DNA of 40,172 nucleotides from a virus, in the UHGV virus genome UHGV-0207031. One strand, written 5' to 3'. Shown piece after piece: positions 10-40,071 of the stretch (its first letter is position 1; each line of letters opens with the position of its first letter). The position numbers and the translations under genes are program-made. The notes beneath the pieces were generated by a model. It worked only from the letters and a program-made list of their open reading frames with translations, did no database searches and was not told where the DNA came from.

Positions 10-714
10 ATGAAAACATTCGCAGATCGACTTAACGCGGCCATGAGTGCCGCTGGCATATCCCAGGGGCAGTTGGCTGAAAAAGTCGGCATATCCCAGC
101 CTGCAATTCAGAAAATGACTTCGGGCAAAACCGCAGGCAGCCGCAAGATGGTTGAGCTTGCCCATGCGTTGAACGTACGACCGGAGTGGCTAAGTTCTGG
201 GGTTGGATCAATGCAGGGTGAGTCACGCAAGGACTCTTCTATTCCACCTGAATCGGAATGGGGTAAGATTGACGCTTGGGATAGCAAAACGGATCTGCCA
301 GATGACGAGGTCGAAGTGCCATATCTGAAAGACATAGAACTTGCTTGTGGTGATGGTTCCTGCATTGACGATGACTACAACGGGTTCAAGCTTCGCTTTG
401 CGAAATCTACCCTGCGTAAAGTGGGGGCCCAAAAGGATAGCGTGCTTTGCTTCCCGGCATCCGGTAATAGCATGGAGCCAATGATCCCAGAGGGGACCAC
501 GGTAGCGATCAATACAAACGACAAAAAAATCGTTGATGGCAAGGTTTATGCGATCAGCCAGGACGGATGGAAGCGACTAAAATCCATTTACCGTGTTAGC
601 CCTACGCGCATTGTGATACGCAGCTTCAACTCTGACGAGTACCCTGATGAAGAGGCTGACATTGAAAACGTAGAGATACTCGGGCGCATGTTCTGGTCCT
701 CTACAATCTGGTGA
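10..714 (+). CDS. CI/C2-type prophage repressor (N-terminal XRE-type HTH, C-terminal LexA-like S24 autocleaving peptidase domain)
   Basis: 234-aa ORF. HTH segment GISQGQLAEKVGISQPAIQKM. S24 Ser motif GNSMEP and catalytic-Lys context DGWKRLK. Divergent from the cro-like gene at the window end and followed by an intrinsic terminator. Confidence 0.85.
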   Translation: MKTFADRLNAAMSAAGISQGQLAEKVGISQPAIQKMTSGKTAGSRKMVELAHALNVRPEWLSSGVGSMQGESRKDSSIPPESEWGKIDAWDSKTDLPDDEVEVPYLKDIELACGDGSCIDDDYNGFKLRFAKSTLRKVGAQKDSVLCFPASGNSMEPMIPEGTTVAINTNDKKIVDGKVYAISQDGWKRLKSIYRVSPTRIVIRSFNSDEYPDEEADIENVEILGRMFWSSTIW

Positions 715-7281: not shown

Positions 7282-7628
7282 TGGATTACAGCAAGCTGAG
7301 TGATGGTGAGATTAGCGTCAGGCTGGCATATTTCCTCAAGCCAAAATACAGCGCCACCATTCACCCACATGAAACTACCGGAGCCAATCTGTCATGGAAC
7401 TGGTTCAACACAGTACAGAACACCGGTTATTTCCCGCTGCGTCGTGCTGAAGAGCTTTTCCCGGTAATGAAGAAACGCCGGATCGGACTTACGCCATCAG
7501 GTAAGACGGTATGGCAGGCATCACACGAATCGGGAATTAGTGTCATCCATCGTAACCCACTTCGCGCCGTGGAAATCGTCTTCCTTCTTTTGCAGGATTC
7601 AGCCAATGTTCAGGATAATACAGCCTAA
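7281..7628 (+). CDS. hypothetical phage protein (115 aa)
   Basis: TGATG overlap with the upstream gene. Confidence 0.55.
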   Translation: MDYSKLSDGEISVRLAYFLKPKYSATIHPHETTGANLSWNWFNTVQNTGYFPLRRAEELFPVMKKRRIGLTPSGKTVWQASHESGISVIHRNPLRAVEIVFLLLQDSANVQDNTA

Positions 7629-7845
7629 TACCTGGTACGCCGACCTTCATGGCGCACCCTGCAAAATCATCCGCGCCACTCACGAAGTTATCCACTACAT
7701 CCGCAACGGTCGCACCTGCATTGCCAGTATGGGCCGCTTTCAAGCAGAGTTCGAACCTCTTACTAAAGCACAGGCCGAGCGGATCGCCGAAGAAATCGAA
7801 ACAGCAGAACACTTAAAACGCCTCCGCGCTATGCGGGCGGCATGA
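7606..7845 (+). CDS. hypothetical small phage protein (79 aa)
   Basis: ATG 7606 inside the tail of the previous ORF in another frame. C-terminal amphipathic helix. Confidence 0.45.
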   Translation: MFRIIQPNTWYADLHGAPCKIIRATHEVIHYIRNGRTCIASMGRFQAEFEPLTKAQAERIAEEIETAEHLKRLRAMRAA

Positions 7846-7854
7846 GGAGAGATT

Positions 7855-8181
7855 ATGCAGCAACACGAAACCGGTTCATCGCTTCAGTTACGCAATCTGA
7901 TACGCCAACGGCACGCTGAATGGTCAGAGAAAACTTTCGGCAATGTCGGTCCGATCGGGCCGCTTAAGCACCTGTCGAAAGAGGCACTTGAAGCCGCAGA
8001 TGATGTTGGCGACCTCAGCGAATGGGCTGACATGCAATTCTTGTTATGGGATGCGCAGCGCCGCGCAGGTATCAGTGACCAAGAAATCACCGCGGCTATG
8101 GAAGAAAATCTCAAAGTGAACATGGCTCGCGAATGGCCTGAGCCGAAAGATGGTGAGCCTCGCCTGCACATTAAGCCATGA
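7855..8181 (+). CDS. MazG-like nucleotide pyrophosphohydrolase family protein (DUF550-type dATP/dGTP pyrophosphohydrolase)
   Basis: EWSEKTFGNVGPIGPLKHLSKEALEAADDVGD...EWADMQFLLWDAQRRAG pattern typical of the prophage MazG-like N-terminal domain. Confidence 0.65.
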   Translation: MQQHETGSSLQLRNLIRQRHAEWSEKTFGNVGPIGPLKHLSKEALEAADDVGDLSEWADMQFLLWDAQRRAGISDQEITAAMEENLKVNMAREWPEPKDGEPRLHIKP

Positions 8182-8189
8182 CGCAACTG

Positions 8190-8212
8190 ATAGCCAGTTA
8201 TGAGCTGGCTAT
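8190..8212 (+). other. perfect 8-bp-stem hairpin (ATAGCCAG-ttatgag-CTGGCTAT) immediately after the MazG-like gene
   Basis: Inverted repeat seen directly. No U-tract on either strand. Confidence 0.5.
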
Positions 8213-8229
8213 TGGGTGCGAATGCACTG

Positions 8230-8266
8230 CCACGTTATCCAGTATCAATGTTGTATAATGGAAGAA
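8230..8266 (+). promoter_or_regulatory. candidate promoter for AT-rich moron (perfect -10 TATAAT at 8254-8259)
   Basis: tgttgTATAATgg. No good -35. AT-rich context. Confidence 0.4.
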
Positions 8267-8287
8267 TATTAACCATGTGGTGAAACT

Positions 8288-8467
8288 ATGAACGATATGT
8301 TCCAAGACTTAACAGGAATAAGTAGCAAAGAAATTTTAGGATCAGGAGAGCAACTATATCTCTGCAAAATGCCAATAGATACAGCACAAGATAATGTAGA
8401 AATTGTTGATTCTCATGATGGACGGATAATCCGAGTTATGCGAAGGCTATTCTCATTCATACCATGA
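8288..8467 (+). CDS. AT-rich moron ORF, 59 aa (MNDMFQDLTGISSKEILGSGEQLYLCKMPIDTAQDNVEIVDSHDGRIIRVMRRLFSFIP)
   Basis: About 35 percent GC versus about 50 percent in the flanks. Own TATAAT. GGTGA RBS. Just upstream of xis. Confidence 0.45.
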   Translation: MNDMFQDLTGISSKEILGSGEQLYLCKMPIDTAQDNVEIVDSHDGRIIRVMRRLFSFIP

Positions 8468-8553
8468 CTAACATCATTCCAAAACAACCCGCCAAGTGCG
8501 GGTTTCTTTTTGCCTGGCTTCCAGGTTCGATTTCCAAACCGGAGATGAAACCC

Positions 8554-8754
8554 ATGCAACACCAATTACAGCCCGATTCACTGGTTGATCTGAAATTCAT
8601 CATGGCAGATACTGGTTTCGGAAAGACCTTCATCTATGACCGCATCAAAGAAGGCACCCTGCCAAAAAGCAAACTCATCCACGGCCGCGCCAGATGGCTA
8701 TATAGTGAACACTGCGAGTTCAAACAAAAGCTCTTAAGCCGCCTCGATGGGTAA
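8554..8754 (+). CDS. xis: AlpA-family excisionase / DNA-binding protein
   Basis: 66 aa from the internal ATG with GGAGA RBS. KTFIYDRIKEGTLPKSKLIHGRARWLYSE resembles the AlpA/Xis HTH. Directly upstream of a P4-family integrase. Confidence 0.7.
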   Translation: MQHQLQPDSLVDLKFIMADTGFGKTFIYDRIKEGTLPKSKLIHGRARWLYSEHCEFKQKLLSRLDG

Positions 8755-9002
8755 AATTGCGGGTAAAATAAAATCCACTTCTGAAAATTCCCTTTCTATA
8801 CAATCCCCTGACATGCCAATTCGATGTATGCAGGGGACACCATTCTATAGTTCGCCACTCTCCGCAGTAGTTCGCAAAATCCCTTGCACAGCAGGCTCTC
8901 AATAAAATACCAGTTCGCCATAGTTCGCAATAGAACGTTGACAGCCGCATACTTCGGCGGGTAAAAAACGAGTAAATGATTTTACCCACCGGAATTTTAC
9001 CC
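8749..9002 (+). promoter_or_regulatory. probable attP: core TGCAGGGGACACCA (8829-8842) with upstream TTCGAT; AGTTCGC[C/A]A repeats at 8849, 8869, 8912, 8922; GGGTAAAA at 8749, 8761, 8959 and inverted TTTTACCC at 8980, 8995 abutting int ATG
   Basis: The core matches the 3' end (T-loop remnant, acceptor, ACCA) of E. coli tRNA-Arg(CCU) argW as remembered. It lies about 160 bp upstream of, and co-oriented with, int (canonical P4-family arrangement). The repeat arrays flank it with 10/20-bp phasing. Confidence 0.55.
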
Positions 9003-10160
9003 ATGCTCACCATCAAACAGATCGACGCAGCAAAGCCGAAAGATAAACCGTACCGGCTGCTCGACAGCAACGGGCTGTACCTTTATGTGCCGGTTACCGG
9101 AAAGAAAGTCTGGCAACTGCGTTACAAGCTCAATGGTAAAGAGAAGGTTTTGACGGTAGGCAAATACCCGCTCATGTCATTGCAGGAAGCCAGAGACAAA
9201 GCTTGGCTTGCCAAAAAGGATGTGTCTGTCGGTGTCGATCCGGTAAAGGCCAAAAAACTGTCAGTCAAAGACAACTCGTTCGGCTCTATATACCAGGAAT
9301 GGTACGAGCACAAAAAACAGGTATGGTCAGAGGTATACAGCACCGAACTGTCACGTATGTTCCAGGATGACATTCTGCCGTTGATTGGCGTGATGGAGAT
9401 TCACGAGATAGAACCAATGCAGATACTGGAGGTGATACGTAGGTTCGAAGAACGTGGGGCAATGGAGCGGGCCAATAAGGCGCGTAGGCGGTGCGGAGAA
9501 GTATTCAGGTACGCGATAGTTACCGGGAGAGCGAAGTATAACCCGGCTCCTGACCTTGCTGATGCCATGAAGGGATACAGGAAGAAGAACTATCCTTTCC
9601 TTCCTGCTGACCAGATACCTGCCTTCAACAAAGCACTATCTGGCTTCTCTGGAAGTATCGTATCAAAGATTGCGACACAGGTTTTGCAGTACACGGTACT
9701 GAGGACAAAAGAACTCCGGTCAATGCAATGGTCGAACGTCGACTTTGAAACCAGGACGATTACGATCGCCGAAGATGTGATGAAGGGGCGTCGCCCTCAC
9801 CTTGTACCAATGTCAGATCAGGTCGTCTCTCTGCTTGAAATGCTGAAGCCTATAACGCAGCCGATATCAAGCTTCGTTTTCGCCGGGCGCAATGACAAAA
9901 CAAAGCCGATCAGTGAAAACGCAGTTCTACTGGTTATTCGCCAGATTGGCTATGAAGGATTGGCAAGTGGCCACGGTTTCCGTCACCAGTTCAGCACCAT
10001 AATGAACGAGCATGAATGGCCCGCAGATGCCATTGAGAAGCAACTTGCGCACGCTAACAGCGGCTCCATTCGTGGGATATACAATCATGCTCAGTACATG
10101 GATAAGCGTCGGGAGATGATGCAGTGGTGGGCAGACTGGCTTGATGAGAAGGCATCATAG
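9003..10160 (+). CDS. int: P4/CP4-57-family tyrosine integrase (DUF4102 N-terminal arm-binding domain plus catalytic domain)
   Basis: MLTIKQIDAAKPKDKPYRLLDSNGLYLYV is a canonical N-terminus. C-terminal H..R..H..Y catalytic region (GHGFRHQF...IYNHAQY). Confidence 0.9.
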   Translation: MLTIKQIDAAKPKDKPYRLLDSNGLYLYVPVTGKKVWQLRYKLNGKEKVLTVGKYPLMSLQEARDKAWLAKKDVSVGVDPVKAKKLSVKDNSFGSIYQEWYEHKKQVWSEVYSTELSRMFQDDILPLIGVMEIHEIEPMQILEVIRRFEERGAMERANKARRRCGEVFRYAIVTGRAKYNPAPDLADAMKGYRKKNYPFLPADQIPAFNKALSGFSGSIVSKIATQVLQYTVLRTKELRSMQWSNVDFETRTITIAEDVMKGRRPHLVPMSDQVVSLLEMLKPITQPISSFVFAGRNDKTKPISENAVLLVIRQIGYEGLASGHGFRHQFSTIMNEHEWPADAIEKQLAHANSGSIRGIYNHAQYMDKRREMMQWWADWLDEKAS

Positions 10161-10241: not shown

Positions 10242-12275
10242 CTAGATTATTGCTCTTCCAGTTTCAGACCCAATCCCACCATTATTGACTCTGATTTCAA
10301 TACTGCTGCCTGGAGTAATAACAGCTGGCACTGCACCTGCAAGTTTAAGATTGGAACTGTGTATTATAGTAAAGTTTGAAGACCCTCCATTTGTTAATGT
10401 TACATTTTTCATGCTAGCAGAGTTAACAAAACCTACTACATCAAAATGTGAACTTACTGAGACATTAATAATATCCCATTGAGAAACATCTATTGTTGAT
10501 GATGCTGATGTTATATTTAAAGTCCTCATCACTGTATCTACAACCAGACCATTTCCTGCGGTTACCTTGTCAGTTACATTGTTACTGTAGATGTTCGTGT
10601 CAGTGATTGGGAGGGTATTATCTCCATTCCTTACAGTATTATCATAAACCTCAATTGCAATTGTATCCTGGTTTATTACAACCCCCTGTGGAGTTGGTTG
10701 CGGATCTGAACCGTAATAGTATGTGGCTGAGCTAGGATCCTGAATATTGCAGCTATGTATTTTAACTCTTCCATTTTTAGCCAGAACAGTTATCCCCTCA
10801 CCACCAGGCATGATGATTGTCTCATCGTGAATTGAGCCTTGAGTGAAGTAATCACCAGATAATGGAGAGCCATCAATAACTATCTGAGGAACCGGTATTC
10901 TTTGAGACCCAAAAGCGTATAAATTGTCATGGATGGTAAATCTTGTGCATTTATTAAGGTAAATGCTTGTTCCTCCTGATTCAAAAAACTTATTATCATG
11001 AATATTAATCCATCCACCACCGTTAACAATTCTTATATGAGAGTTCTTTTCATTACTCTTAAGGACACCTCCTGGGAAAAATGGGATGTTATCAGAAACT
11101 GTAAGTCCATCAATTGTGTCAATATATATGTGATCAACGGTTGCATGCCCCTCATTTCCGCTAACAATCCAGTCAGCCATAGGGTACTGCATCCCAGGAG
11201 ACGGCTCGCTAAAGATAAATCTATCTACAGACTCACCATCCTCTGCCCCCTTTCCATAGTGACATCCAGATACAATCCATCTATTAACCATCTGCCCCCA
11301 TGCAGTTGCTGATGAGCCACCTACAGTAGTGCTAGGGATGATATGAATAAAGTTTTTATATCCTCGAACATCTTTAATATCAGATATGTTTCCCATTCTG
11401 GCATATGCAAGCTCAATAGCTGAAGTTATAGCTCTATCTGTTATAAAACTAACACCAGATATTTTAGTATTCATATAAATATCTGAGCTTGTAAGGAATG
11501 TGTCCCGACACACCCTTATGGTTCCATCTATAACACCACTTCCGCTAACTGTTACATTTTGTTTTTTTATCCAAATTCTTGTGAATTTTGTTGTTGTCCC
11601 ATACGGGAAAGTAATTTCTGCACCTTCGCCAAGTTCGTCTACCATCTTTTGTAGGTTGACGTCATTTAATGCAATATCAGAAAGATTATTGCTCCAGTTC
11701 CTTACATCTCCAATGTCATAACCATTAAGATACCCTACTGCTGACCAACTTGAATCAGGTGATGAGTTTGGAGGCACTGATACTGGCAAAGTTCCGTTAT
11801 ATCTATACCAATAACCATCATCATAATTTAAAAGCACCTGTTTTCTTTCTGTGATTGTAGCCCCGGTGTCAAATGTCTGCCCAAACATTCTGTAATAAAC
11901 TTCATATCTAAATGCTGACTTTGCATAAATTGAGAATTGGTCAGGGTCATACTTCAACACGTTGGCGATATAGTCGACTTGCGATCCATAGGCATCGTAG
12001 ATAGCCATGCTATGGCCCTGAACGGTGACAATTTTCACCAACTGTCCGTTGTATACGATTTTGCCGGCTGCGTTGATGATTAACGGCTGAGTAATCTGAA
12101 CGTGAGAGCCGTCCTCATTTTCAATGTATACGGGTATCTGATTGGCAGGATTAACCGGATCAGTATCAATCTGACCAATATAAATCCGACCATTAGCTAC
12201 TGCGCGAAATGTACGTGAATCAGTGAAGATAGGGCGAGGGTTAGACACAACCACGTTTGCAGTGATATCTGACAT
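10242..12275 (-). CDS. tailspike protein: P22-gp9-like N-terminal head-binding domain plus divergent beta-helix receptor-binding/glycanase domain
   Basis: N-terminus ([16 protein letters not shown]...[47 protein letters not shown]) matches P22 tailspike almost residue-for-residue as remembered. The remainder is AT-rich with a beta-helix-like repetitive pattern. Confidence 0.9.
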
Positions 12276-29591: not shown

Positions 29592-29666
29592 TGGTGCCGG
29601 GCAAAGGAATCGAACCTCTGACGCGCAGCTTACAAGGCTGCCGTTCTGCCACTGAACTAGACCGGC
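29592..29666 (-). tRNA. tRNA-Thr (anticodon UGU)
   Basis: Cloverleaf GCCGGTCTAGTTCAGTGGCAGAACGGCAGCCTTGTAAGCTGCGCGTCAGAGGTTCGATTCCTTTGCCCGGCACCA. Anticodon loop cuUGUaa. One acceptor mismatch (6:67). Encoded CCA. Confidence 0.7.
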
Positions 29667-29671
29667 GAATT

Positions 29672-29747
29672 TGGTGGAACCCGATGGAATCGAACCATCT
29701 CCTAATGCTCTTCAGGCATCCGCGCGAACCATCTACGCCAGAGTTCC
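29672..29747 (-). tRNA. tRNA, anticodon GAA (Phe) by manual fold; unusual G37
   Basis: GGAACTCTGGCGTAGATGGTTCGCGCGGATGCCTGAAGAGCATTAGGAGATGGTTCGATTCCATCGGGTTCCACCA. T-arm GATGG-TTCGATT-CCATC. Anticodon loop cuGAAga. Confidence 0.5.
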
Positions 29748-29754
29748 AGATACG

Positions 29755-29783
29755 AAAAAGCCCAAGGCGTTAACCTCGGGCTT
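29755..29783 (-). terminator. tR'-like terminator downstream of late promoter (aagcccgagg-ttaacg-ccttgggctt + T5)
   Basis: 10-bp stem with one G-U pair, T-run on the minus strand. About 75 nt downstream of the predicted PR'. Confidence 0.55.
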
Positions 29784-29836
29784 GTATTCTTTGTGTCGAC
29801 AATCAAAGCTATGGCGACGATATCAGATTTACATGA

Positions 29837-39852: not shown

Positions 39853-40071
39853 TTATGCCGCCGGATGTGGGAAGAGTTCTGGGAGATCAGGTCTGATTTC
39901 ATGCGCCTTAATCTCACCACCTGTGGCATTTACGATTGCAGTCACTTTTTCTGGTGAAACAGCGCCGCCATTCAGCCACTTATGAACCGCTGGCTGGCTA
40001 ACGCCGCAGACATCTGCGAGTCGCTTCTGGCTGCCAACGATTTTCAGGGCTCGTTGAATAACTAAATTCAT
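39853..40071 (-). CDS. cro: Cro-like HTH regulator (YdaS/Cro family)
   Basis: 72 aa. KIVGSQKRLADVCGVSQPAVHKWLNGG HTH. Divergent from the repressor across the operator cluster. Confidence 0.75.
   Translation of the reverse strand: MNLVIQRALKIVGSQKRLADVCGVSQPAVHKWLNGGAVSPEKVTAIVNATGGEIKAHEIRPDLPELFPHPAA

Follow-up and report, generated by a model that had tools for sequence, protein, structure and literature searches.

The 40,172-nucleotide virus genome UHGV-0207031, analysed over its whole length and referred to here as the window, carries directly before its excisionase gene xis an AT-rich single-gene cassette of the kind known as a moron. The cassette, of about 265 bp, contains a -10 element, a ribosome binding site (RBS), an open reading frame of 59 codons designated ORF59 and its own intrinsic terminator stem, and it interrupts a conserved structured element, called here the boundary element. 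ORF59 is a real gene and the cassette is an insertion, with the terminator, slot and orientation described below. The favoured explanation, that 8241-8504 is a single-gene moron which arrived, is expressed and acts as set out in the following sections, is given a probability of about 0.6.

The inserted cassette and its slot

The whole boundary element measures about 95 nt. It begins with a stop codon and continues with a covarying hairpin, an invariant block and an intrinsic terminator; its normal place is directly before xis. Empty examples are found at L126:244-342(-) and L013:2991-3089; the element of the window is split into 8179-8240 and 8505-8517. Three relatives (L080, L126 and L129) possess the xis gene and the xis leader of the window without ORF59, and most phages with this xis lack the gene. 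At the empty sites CACGTTATCC is followed by CCCATTTGCCCGGCC-ATAG-TGCCGGG-TTCTTTTTGCCTGGCTTCC, whereas in the window about 265 bp separate CACGTTATCC from GGG-TTTCTTTTTGCCTGGCTTCC; the comparison of the junctions therefore places the insert at about 8241-8504, where it stands in place of the spacer of about 26 bp and the terminator stem of the empty sites. The T-run and the GCCTGG behind it are common to the window and the empty sites. Among the matches listed, 116 of the 129 copies of the element are empty, with the terminator starting 35-52 nt after the block, and a distance of 276-291 nt was encountered at ORF59 loci only.

The content of guanine plus cytosine (GC) is 0.361 in ORF59 and 0.347 over 8241-8485, which places the latter in the lowest 0.6% of 245-bp segments, compared with 0.499 for the whole window, 0.53 for the upstream gene and 0.47 for xis. 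An island of roughly 35% GC, as reported in a preliminary description of this region, is thus present. The full span of 8186-8553 that had been assigned to the moron shows a GC content of only 0.405, because both of its ends are ordinary conserved sequence.

The best-supported regulatory part of the cassette is its terminator, which was absent from the preliminary description. The stem-loop begins 19 nt after the stop codon of ORF59, occupies 8486-8504 and is followed by TCTTTTTG; its predicted folding energy is -12.4 kcal/mol (z -3.2). Among the matches listed, the same stem was found identical in the loci L016 and L017 and at no empty site.

Copies of the cassette that are 97% identical are located behind different upstream genes (the window, L008/L009, L011 and L012). 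In total it was found behind at least five different upstream genes and before three different modules of xis and integrase (int) genes. One is the AlpA-like xis and P4-type int of the window; L004 combines a second allele of xis with a different int that adjoins an AIPR gene, and in L016 an xis of the HTH_17 type overlaps an int of lambda type. Homology to the other loci begins at 8177-8179, the first base of the element; its other limit is 8543 or the att core. The occurrence of filled and empty versions of the site with the same xis, together with the different neighbours, bears out the earlier proposal of a horizontally acquired accessory gene.

The slot also receives other genes. In HK639 (L015, 2501-2860) it holds the unrelated gene gp31, and further unrelated cargo is present in contigs of one type represented by L149, L151 and L176, where the gene is preceded by AAGGAGG, and of another represented by L164. 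Since several unrelated cargos, at least three besides ORF59, share one slot, the site is a recurrent insertion hotspot, and in the simplest reading the conserved flanks are homology arms for cassette exchange. Like ORF59, these genes are inserted right after the conserved hairpin and before the terminator and xis, and gp31 is likewise AT-rich, with a similar AAACCCGC/GCGGGTTT terminator. Unlike ORF59, gp31 and the L149- and L164-type genes lack a TATAAT-like element, their proteins are unrelated to the ORF59 product (no alignment), and their left junction lies 25-30 nt further upstream, with the invariant block lost or truncated.

Morons are defined by a GC content unlike that of their surroundings and by their own promoter and terminator, gene 15 of HK97 being the classical lambdoid case (PMC3594210). 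Three of the four sequence-level characteristics of a moron were recognized here, i.e., addition at a site which is empty in close relatives, a base composition unlike that of the neighbours, and an own terminator, predicted at 8486-8511 with a stem type specific to the cassette; by and large the cassette deserves the name moron. As in the lambdoid morons exemplified by HK97 gene 15, ORF59 is a single extra gene, present or absent at one site in related genomes, of deviant GC content, with a terminator directly 3' and a promoter-like element 5', inserted in the orientation of the operon. It differs from them in its position in the early-left operon beside xis rather than in a late or tail operon, in a promoter consisting only of a -10 hexamer, and in a product without signal peptide, membrane segment or known function.

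Two rearrangements adjoining the slot were observed in addition. In about 20 contigs the xis gene 3' of the cassette is precisely deleted (L001 320-345 compared with L004 320-660), the missing stretch extending from the RBS (CCGGA) as far as the att core (GGACACCAT), and the deletion looks microhomology-mediated. It brings ORF59 directly beside another integrase gene, together with genes for an AIPR abortive-infection protein and a primase-like protein; such a locus might be the end of a decayed prophage in which ORF59 is still intact, or else a tandem island. In L014 (Escherichia coli EF7-18-51, 1889-2980) an IS200/IS605-type TnpB gene (InsQ) ends about 20 bp before the conserved hairpin, and a different sequence replaces the usual TGACG start of the element.

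Table 1. Positions of the cassette, the boundary element and other features in the window
Feature	Position	Strand	Basis or remark
CI-type repressor gene	10-714	+	First gene of the window
PF04447 dATP/dGTP pyrophosphohydrolase gene	7855-8181	+	Pfam; 'MazG-like' gene of the preliminary description
5' half of the boundary element	8179-8240	+	From the TGA of the upstream gene: TGACGCAACTG, hairpin, TTGGGTGCGAATGCACTGCCACGTTATCC; outside the cassette
Hairpin 1 of the element	8190-8212	+	Perfect 8-bp stem, no U-tract; covariation
Mini-hairpin GTGC-GAAT-GCAC (predicted)	8216-8227	+	Within the invariant block; folds
AT-rich inserted cassette (moron proper), about 265 bp	8241-8504	+	Empty-site comparison
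Candidate sigma-70 -10 hexamer TATAAT, then GG	8254-8259	+	28 nt before the ATG
Shine-Dalgarno-like GGTGA	8279-8283	+	4 nt before the ATG; TGGTGA in all three lineages
ORF59, orphan gene, 59 amino acids	8288-8467	+	ATG start, TGA stop; homologues; dN/dS (see text)
Intrinsic terminator AACCCGC-CAAGT-GCGGGTT + TCTTTTT	8486-8511	+	Terminator scan, fold
xis leader (GCCTGGCTTCCAGGTTCGATTTCCAAACCGGAGATGAAACCC)	8512-8553	+	Common to the empty sites; outside the cassette
xis, AlpA-like excisionase, 66 amino acids	8554-8754	+	PHROG 66 at 6.7e-8; weak Pfam AlpA match
attP region between xis and int	8744-8990	.	GGGTAAAA and AGTTCGC repeats
P4-type tyrosine integrase	8976-10160	+	Pfam Arm-DNA-bind_3, Phage_int_M, Phage_integrase
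cro-like gene	39853-40071	-	Last gene of the window; strand opposite to the repressor

Expression of ORF59

The TATAAT before ORF59 is the sole copy on the + strand of the 40-kb window, and the genome is depleted of this hexamer (3 found on both strands versus 11.9 +/- 3.3 expected from dinucleotide shuffles), although a single TATAAT is in itself not improbable by chance. The loci L016 and L017, with proteins sharing 63-69% identity with that of the window, keep it as TGTAYAATGG, 27-28 nt before the ATG, and this conservation is not due to coding because an in-frame TAA at 8270-8272 intervenes. A GG following the -10 hexamer is associated with stable open complexes through contacts with region 1.2 of the sigma factor, and would favour such complexes here. 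The preliminary description had claimed an own promoter for the gene; the perfect hexamer stands, but both a -35 region and an extended -10 are absent, and the promoter scan yielded nothing. The invariant block was considered as the -35 region and ruled out, as it lies 15, 25 or 30 nt from the hexamer in the three lineages. A CII-type activator site (TTGC-N6-TTGC) in TTGGGTGCGAATGC, matching by eye at 6 of 8 positions, was dropped.

According to the favoured explanation, the AT-rich cassette would have been acquired by recombination into the conserved element between the PL accessory genes and xis, replacing only the short spacer and the terminator stem; the flanks (8179-8240 and the T-run with GCCTGG) would have been retained as homology arms, by which the cassette could move between phages with different neighbours. 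Upon infection or induction, transcription from PL would cross the hairpin, which lacks a U-tract, and enter ORF59; RNA polymerase in its unmodified form would stop at 8486-8511, and N-modified polymerase would proceed into xis. A low constitutive transcript of ORF59 alone could arise in the lysogen from the promoter TATAATGG, which has only a -10 element, and the terminator would keep this transcript out of xis, 87 bp downstream at the prophage end. Judged from the sequence, the odds that ORF59 is expressed in the lysogen are about even, and we infer that its expression may be independent of PL.

It is possible, though on the whole unlikely, that ORF59 is an ordinary early-left ('ea'-type) gene transcribed solely with the PL operon, upon infection or induction, the TATAAT being incidental to AT-rich sequence and silent in lysogens. 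ORF59 is co-oriented with the PL operon, and as no terminator separates it from the upstream genes and the hairpin before it lacks a U-tract, PL transcription must enter it. A series of findings weighs against the favoured explanation, and several of them speak for an ea-type gene. No -35 hexamer is present (at best 2 of 6 positions at spacers of 15-19), nor a TGn extended -10, and the promoter scan of 7500-9300 detected no two-hexamer promoter. The conservation of the -10 element is only mildly unlikely, with an estimated chance of about 0.01-0.1, the 40-nt leader as a whole being about 65-70% identical. HK639 gp31 and the L149-type cargo start right after the hairpin and show no obvious promoter of their own, and PL-driven expression may be the rule for the slot. 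A terminator before xis belongs to the slot with or without cargo. The homologues in L016 and L017 have 44-47% GC, and AT-richness is accordingly no trait of the family. Finally, no family, defence or structure match supports any function of ORF59.

The ea-type alternative is opposed by three features of the cassette, i.e., the constant spacing between the ATG and the -10 element with its GG in homologues of 63-69% identity, the avoidance of TATAAT elsewhere on the + strand of the window, and the terminator stem that the cassette brings along instead of reusing the resident one. In lambda, the gene ea8.5 is located directly upstream of xis (lambda map). ORF59 resembles the ea genes of lambda and P22 in being small, non-essential-looking, placed between the recombination genes (erf etc.) and xis and transcribed from PL; unlike them, it has no sequence similarity to be recognized (no PHROG match) and is bracketed by a structured element and its own terminator. 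Early-left accessory genes have also been described in the P22-like phage L (PMC8022706).

Coding status and product of ORF59

A word-indexed search of 5.8 billion proteins returned a single cluster, 95% identical and comprising five variants. The product is already deposited as the hypothetical protein DAH60079.1, and the copy of Citrobacter freundii as EMQ2223274.1. With HMMER, 1.84 billion cluster representatives were searched exhaustively, which yielded P0006 (63% identical), and a profile search added P0009 (69% identical). The family, consisting of three protein clusters at 90% identity, is very rare. A tblastn search of 50,697 phage records gave only noise (E about 3), and no relative was found on scanning one genome per GTDB species twice (185,579 genomes), on scanning IMG/VR twice, or in the 39 complete E. 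coli genomes which carry the 5' half of the boundary element; a scan of metagenomes provided one extra, near-identical locus.

The product is acidic, polar and soluble-looking, without signal peptide or membrane segment; as regards a type I toxin, the translation contains no hydrophobic stretch of membrane-spanning length. The VEIVDSHDG core is predicted to form a beta-hairpin, and the conserved LFSF-x-P tail is hydrophobic. The AlphaFold2 model from a four-sequence alignment was unreliable, with a predicted local distance difference test (pLDDT) score of 51 and a predicted template modelling (pTM) score of 0.23. Comparison with Pfam, PHROGs, PADLOC, NCBIfam and the PDB sequences gave no match, at permissive E-values too in the case of PHROGs and PADLOC. 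The profile searches thus assigned the product to no family, and the roles first suggested for it (anti-defence, toxin or host modulation) found no support in these collections. Most likely this small product binds a protein, of either the host or a phage, in the cytoplasm. The best guess at its role would be one of benefit to the lysogen or of exclusion type, and not excision, since ORF59 is found together with three xis/int modules that are unrelated to one another.

A part in site-specific recombination, as an accessory modulator of Xis or Int, would also account for the place of ORF59 immediately 5' of xis in every locus found. This is very improbable, for the gene accompanies three unrelated recombination modules, persists where xis has been deleted (L001) and owes its position to the conserved element at which the cassette is docked; the majority of phages with the xis of the window are devoid of ORF59. 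Its travel as a single gene with unrelated xis and int genes and its persistence without xis argue against a two-protein toxin-antitoxin pair as well.

By its pattern of conservation, ORF59 is a genuine protein-coding gene, as the 59-amino-acid reading frame of the preliminary description had implied. The cores of P0006 and P0009 comprise 59 codons, align without gaps and end at the same stop codon. The ratio of non-synonymous to synonymous substitution rates (dN/dS) between ORF59 and its counterparts in L016 and L017 is 0.13-0.30 at dS 0.8-1.1, with no insertions or deletions, and purifying selection on the protein is therefore indicated. Across the homologues 33 residues are invariant, including the VEIVDSHDG motif, and the LFSF-x-P C-terminus is kept. 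A spurious frame, opened by chance in an AT-rich non-coding stretch (a spacer, a small RNA or H-NS-bound filler), is hardly credible in view of these data. Such a reading could point to the very short length of ORF59, to the lack of a known family, to the poor structure model and to the close clade, where the changes are few and mostly non-synonymous (dN/dS 0.4-0.8 on 5-8 changes); against it, frame, length, start context and stop are all maintained at dS of about 1, and no Rfam family matches the region.

Equally hard to credit is a remnant of a larger gene, e.g., one ankyrin-like repeat of a repeat protein: a phmmer match to a single repeat of a 2718-amino-acid ankyrin-type protein (E = 6.8e-7, 40% identity over 42 residues) and gene calls of 69 and 84 amino acids in two relatives may seem to favour it, but every true homologue occupies this slot as a separate gene of 59 codons. 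The ankyrin lead was taken as noise because no Pfam Ank model matched at E <=1 and the matched protein is massively repetitive, the similarity covering one repeat-length stretch of ORF59 only. P0006 and P0009 are annotated as longer only because the gene callers extended them upstream; the added parts are unconserved read-through, the shared start follows GGTGA, and in the window the TAA at 8270-8272 closes the upstream frame.

The boundary element, its genomic setting and its significance

The perfect hairpin at 8190-8212 without a U-tract, noted in the preliminary description, was confirmed, but it is not part of the moron: it belongs to the boundary element, which a pattern scan found in at least 120 IMG/VR contigs, nearly all of them without ORF59 and behind many different genes. 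The hairpin was for this reason ruled out as the upstream boundary of the moron. It was likewise rejected as a rho-independent terminator, since TTGGGTGCG follows the stem, a U-tract is missing and the terminator scan did not report it. In 129 occurrences the conserved stretch reads TGA-CGCAACTG, hairpin, TTGGGTGCGAAWGCACTGC..CGTTATCC, and the sequence before the stop codon is highly varied. In 116 cases among the matches listed, the terminator of the element is followed by TTCTTTTTGCCTGGAGA and the next gene, which is usually xis. The element invariably comes after the last early-left accessory gene, with xis or a different gene on its other side. Stretch 8186-8240 (55 bp) matches 39 of 5426 complete E. 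coli genomes (about 1%) at 94-100% identity, and this half of the element is also found in HK639 and in Enterobacter phages; in the E. coli genomes and HK639 it follows the last early-left accessory gene, just before xis.

The arms of the first hairpin are ATAGCCAG (8190-8197) and CTGGCTAT (8205-8212), and 13 pairs, including G-U pairs, are present in the fold. Among 66 distinct sequences 99.2% of the cells were paired; three pairs were changed on both sides, from AU to GC 15 times and from GC to AU 12 times, and the U-G wobbles indicate an RNA of the + strand. The predicted mini-hairpin of the element is GNRA-capped, with a GAAA loop in most relatives, its variants GCGCC and GTGCC are compatible with pairing, and GCA at 8183-8185 with TGC at 8228-8230 would form the closing helix of a predicted three-way junction; the columns of the mini-hairpin and of this helix were fixed by the search pattern, so that their invariance is uninformative. 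The terminator stem of the element occurs in at least five sequence types, all of which keep the pairing.

When the element of the window and that of one empty site were compared with Rfam 15, only terminator-like matches far below threshold were obtained, and full-text literature searches turned up no description of it. Lambda tL and sib/tI are examples of the intra-operon terminators and retroregulatory hairpins of lambdoid phages. Like them, the element combines a conserved structured RNA with an intrinsic terminator and would stop polymerase not modified for antitermination; unlike them, it shares no sequence similarity with these sites, is not in Rfam and is located upstream of xis instead of downstream of int. 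A more daring proposal, which at present must be considered rather unlikely, would regard the element as an undescribed cis-acting RNA module of enterobacterial lambdoid phages that gates PL read-through into xis and serves as a universal docking site for cassettes exchanged by homologous recombination. ORF59 would be one cargo among several, and its product a small protein effector whose synthesis the -10-only promoter maintains during lysogeny.

With its complete, circularly permuted sequence, the window represents the genome of a temperate P22-like phage. On the + strand, 3' of the repressor gene, follow erf, dam, TraR-like, NinX-like and PF04447 genes, and the placement of ORF59 between the last of these and xis agrees with the preliminary description. 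In a related prophage of C. freundii (L011) the order is N, kil, erf, dam ... ORF59, xis, host DNA. The arm-type repeats GGGTAAAA(T) of attP are located at 8748, 8761 and 8958, with an inverted copy at 8979, four AGTTCGC repeats lie at 8849-8933, and the common core ends at about 8843 (GCAGGGGACACCAT). In three integrated relatives (L011, L012 and L138) the homology to the window stops at 8843-8853, which places attP between xis and int and consequently xis at the very end of the prophage. In agreement with this, xis is the last gene at its end of the integrated prophage, host genes following directly in L011, and int comes to lie at the opposite end. From this layout and the gene order of L011, the + strand of the window is the PL direction. 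No tRNA gene that could represent attB was found in the Citrobacter flank of L011. In the KplE1, HK620, Sf6 and CUS-3 modules xis, the recombination directionality factor gene, and int are uncoupled, with attP between them (PMC2951348); the window shares with these the position of xis and int at opposite prophage ends, a likeness of the neighbourhood in layout only.

Two other regions of the window were noted. The tailspike gene, 3' of int on the other strand, and its surroundings (10242-12275, - strand) are AT-rich (GC 0.35-0.40 versus 0.50), which suggests a second, separately acquired module adjoining int. At 29595-29833 (- strand) two tRNA genes stand beside a full-length match to isrJ (RF01393), an Hfq-binding small RNA family, with 58.9 bits against a gathering score of 37.

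Taken by itself, ORF59 is an ordinary find, one more orphan accessory gene whose product is already on deposit, and it would gain importance only if its 59-amino-acid product turned out to affect the lysogen phenotypically, e.g., through exclusion, defence or host modulation. The insertion site is the more useful outcome, as the element before xis holds at least four unrelated cargo genes. The conserved structured element was the unexpected part and merits separate attention; it offers a sequence handle for tracing the accessory genes that lie at the left end of lambdoid prophages and for studying how transcription into the excision gene is insulated.

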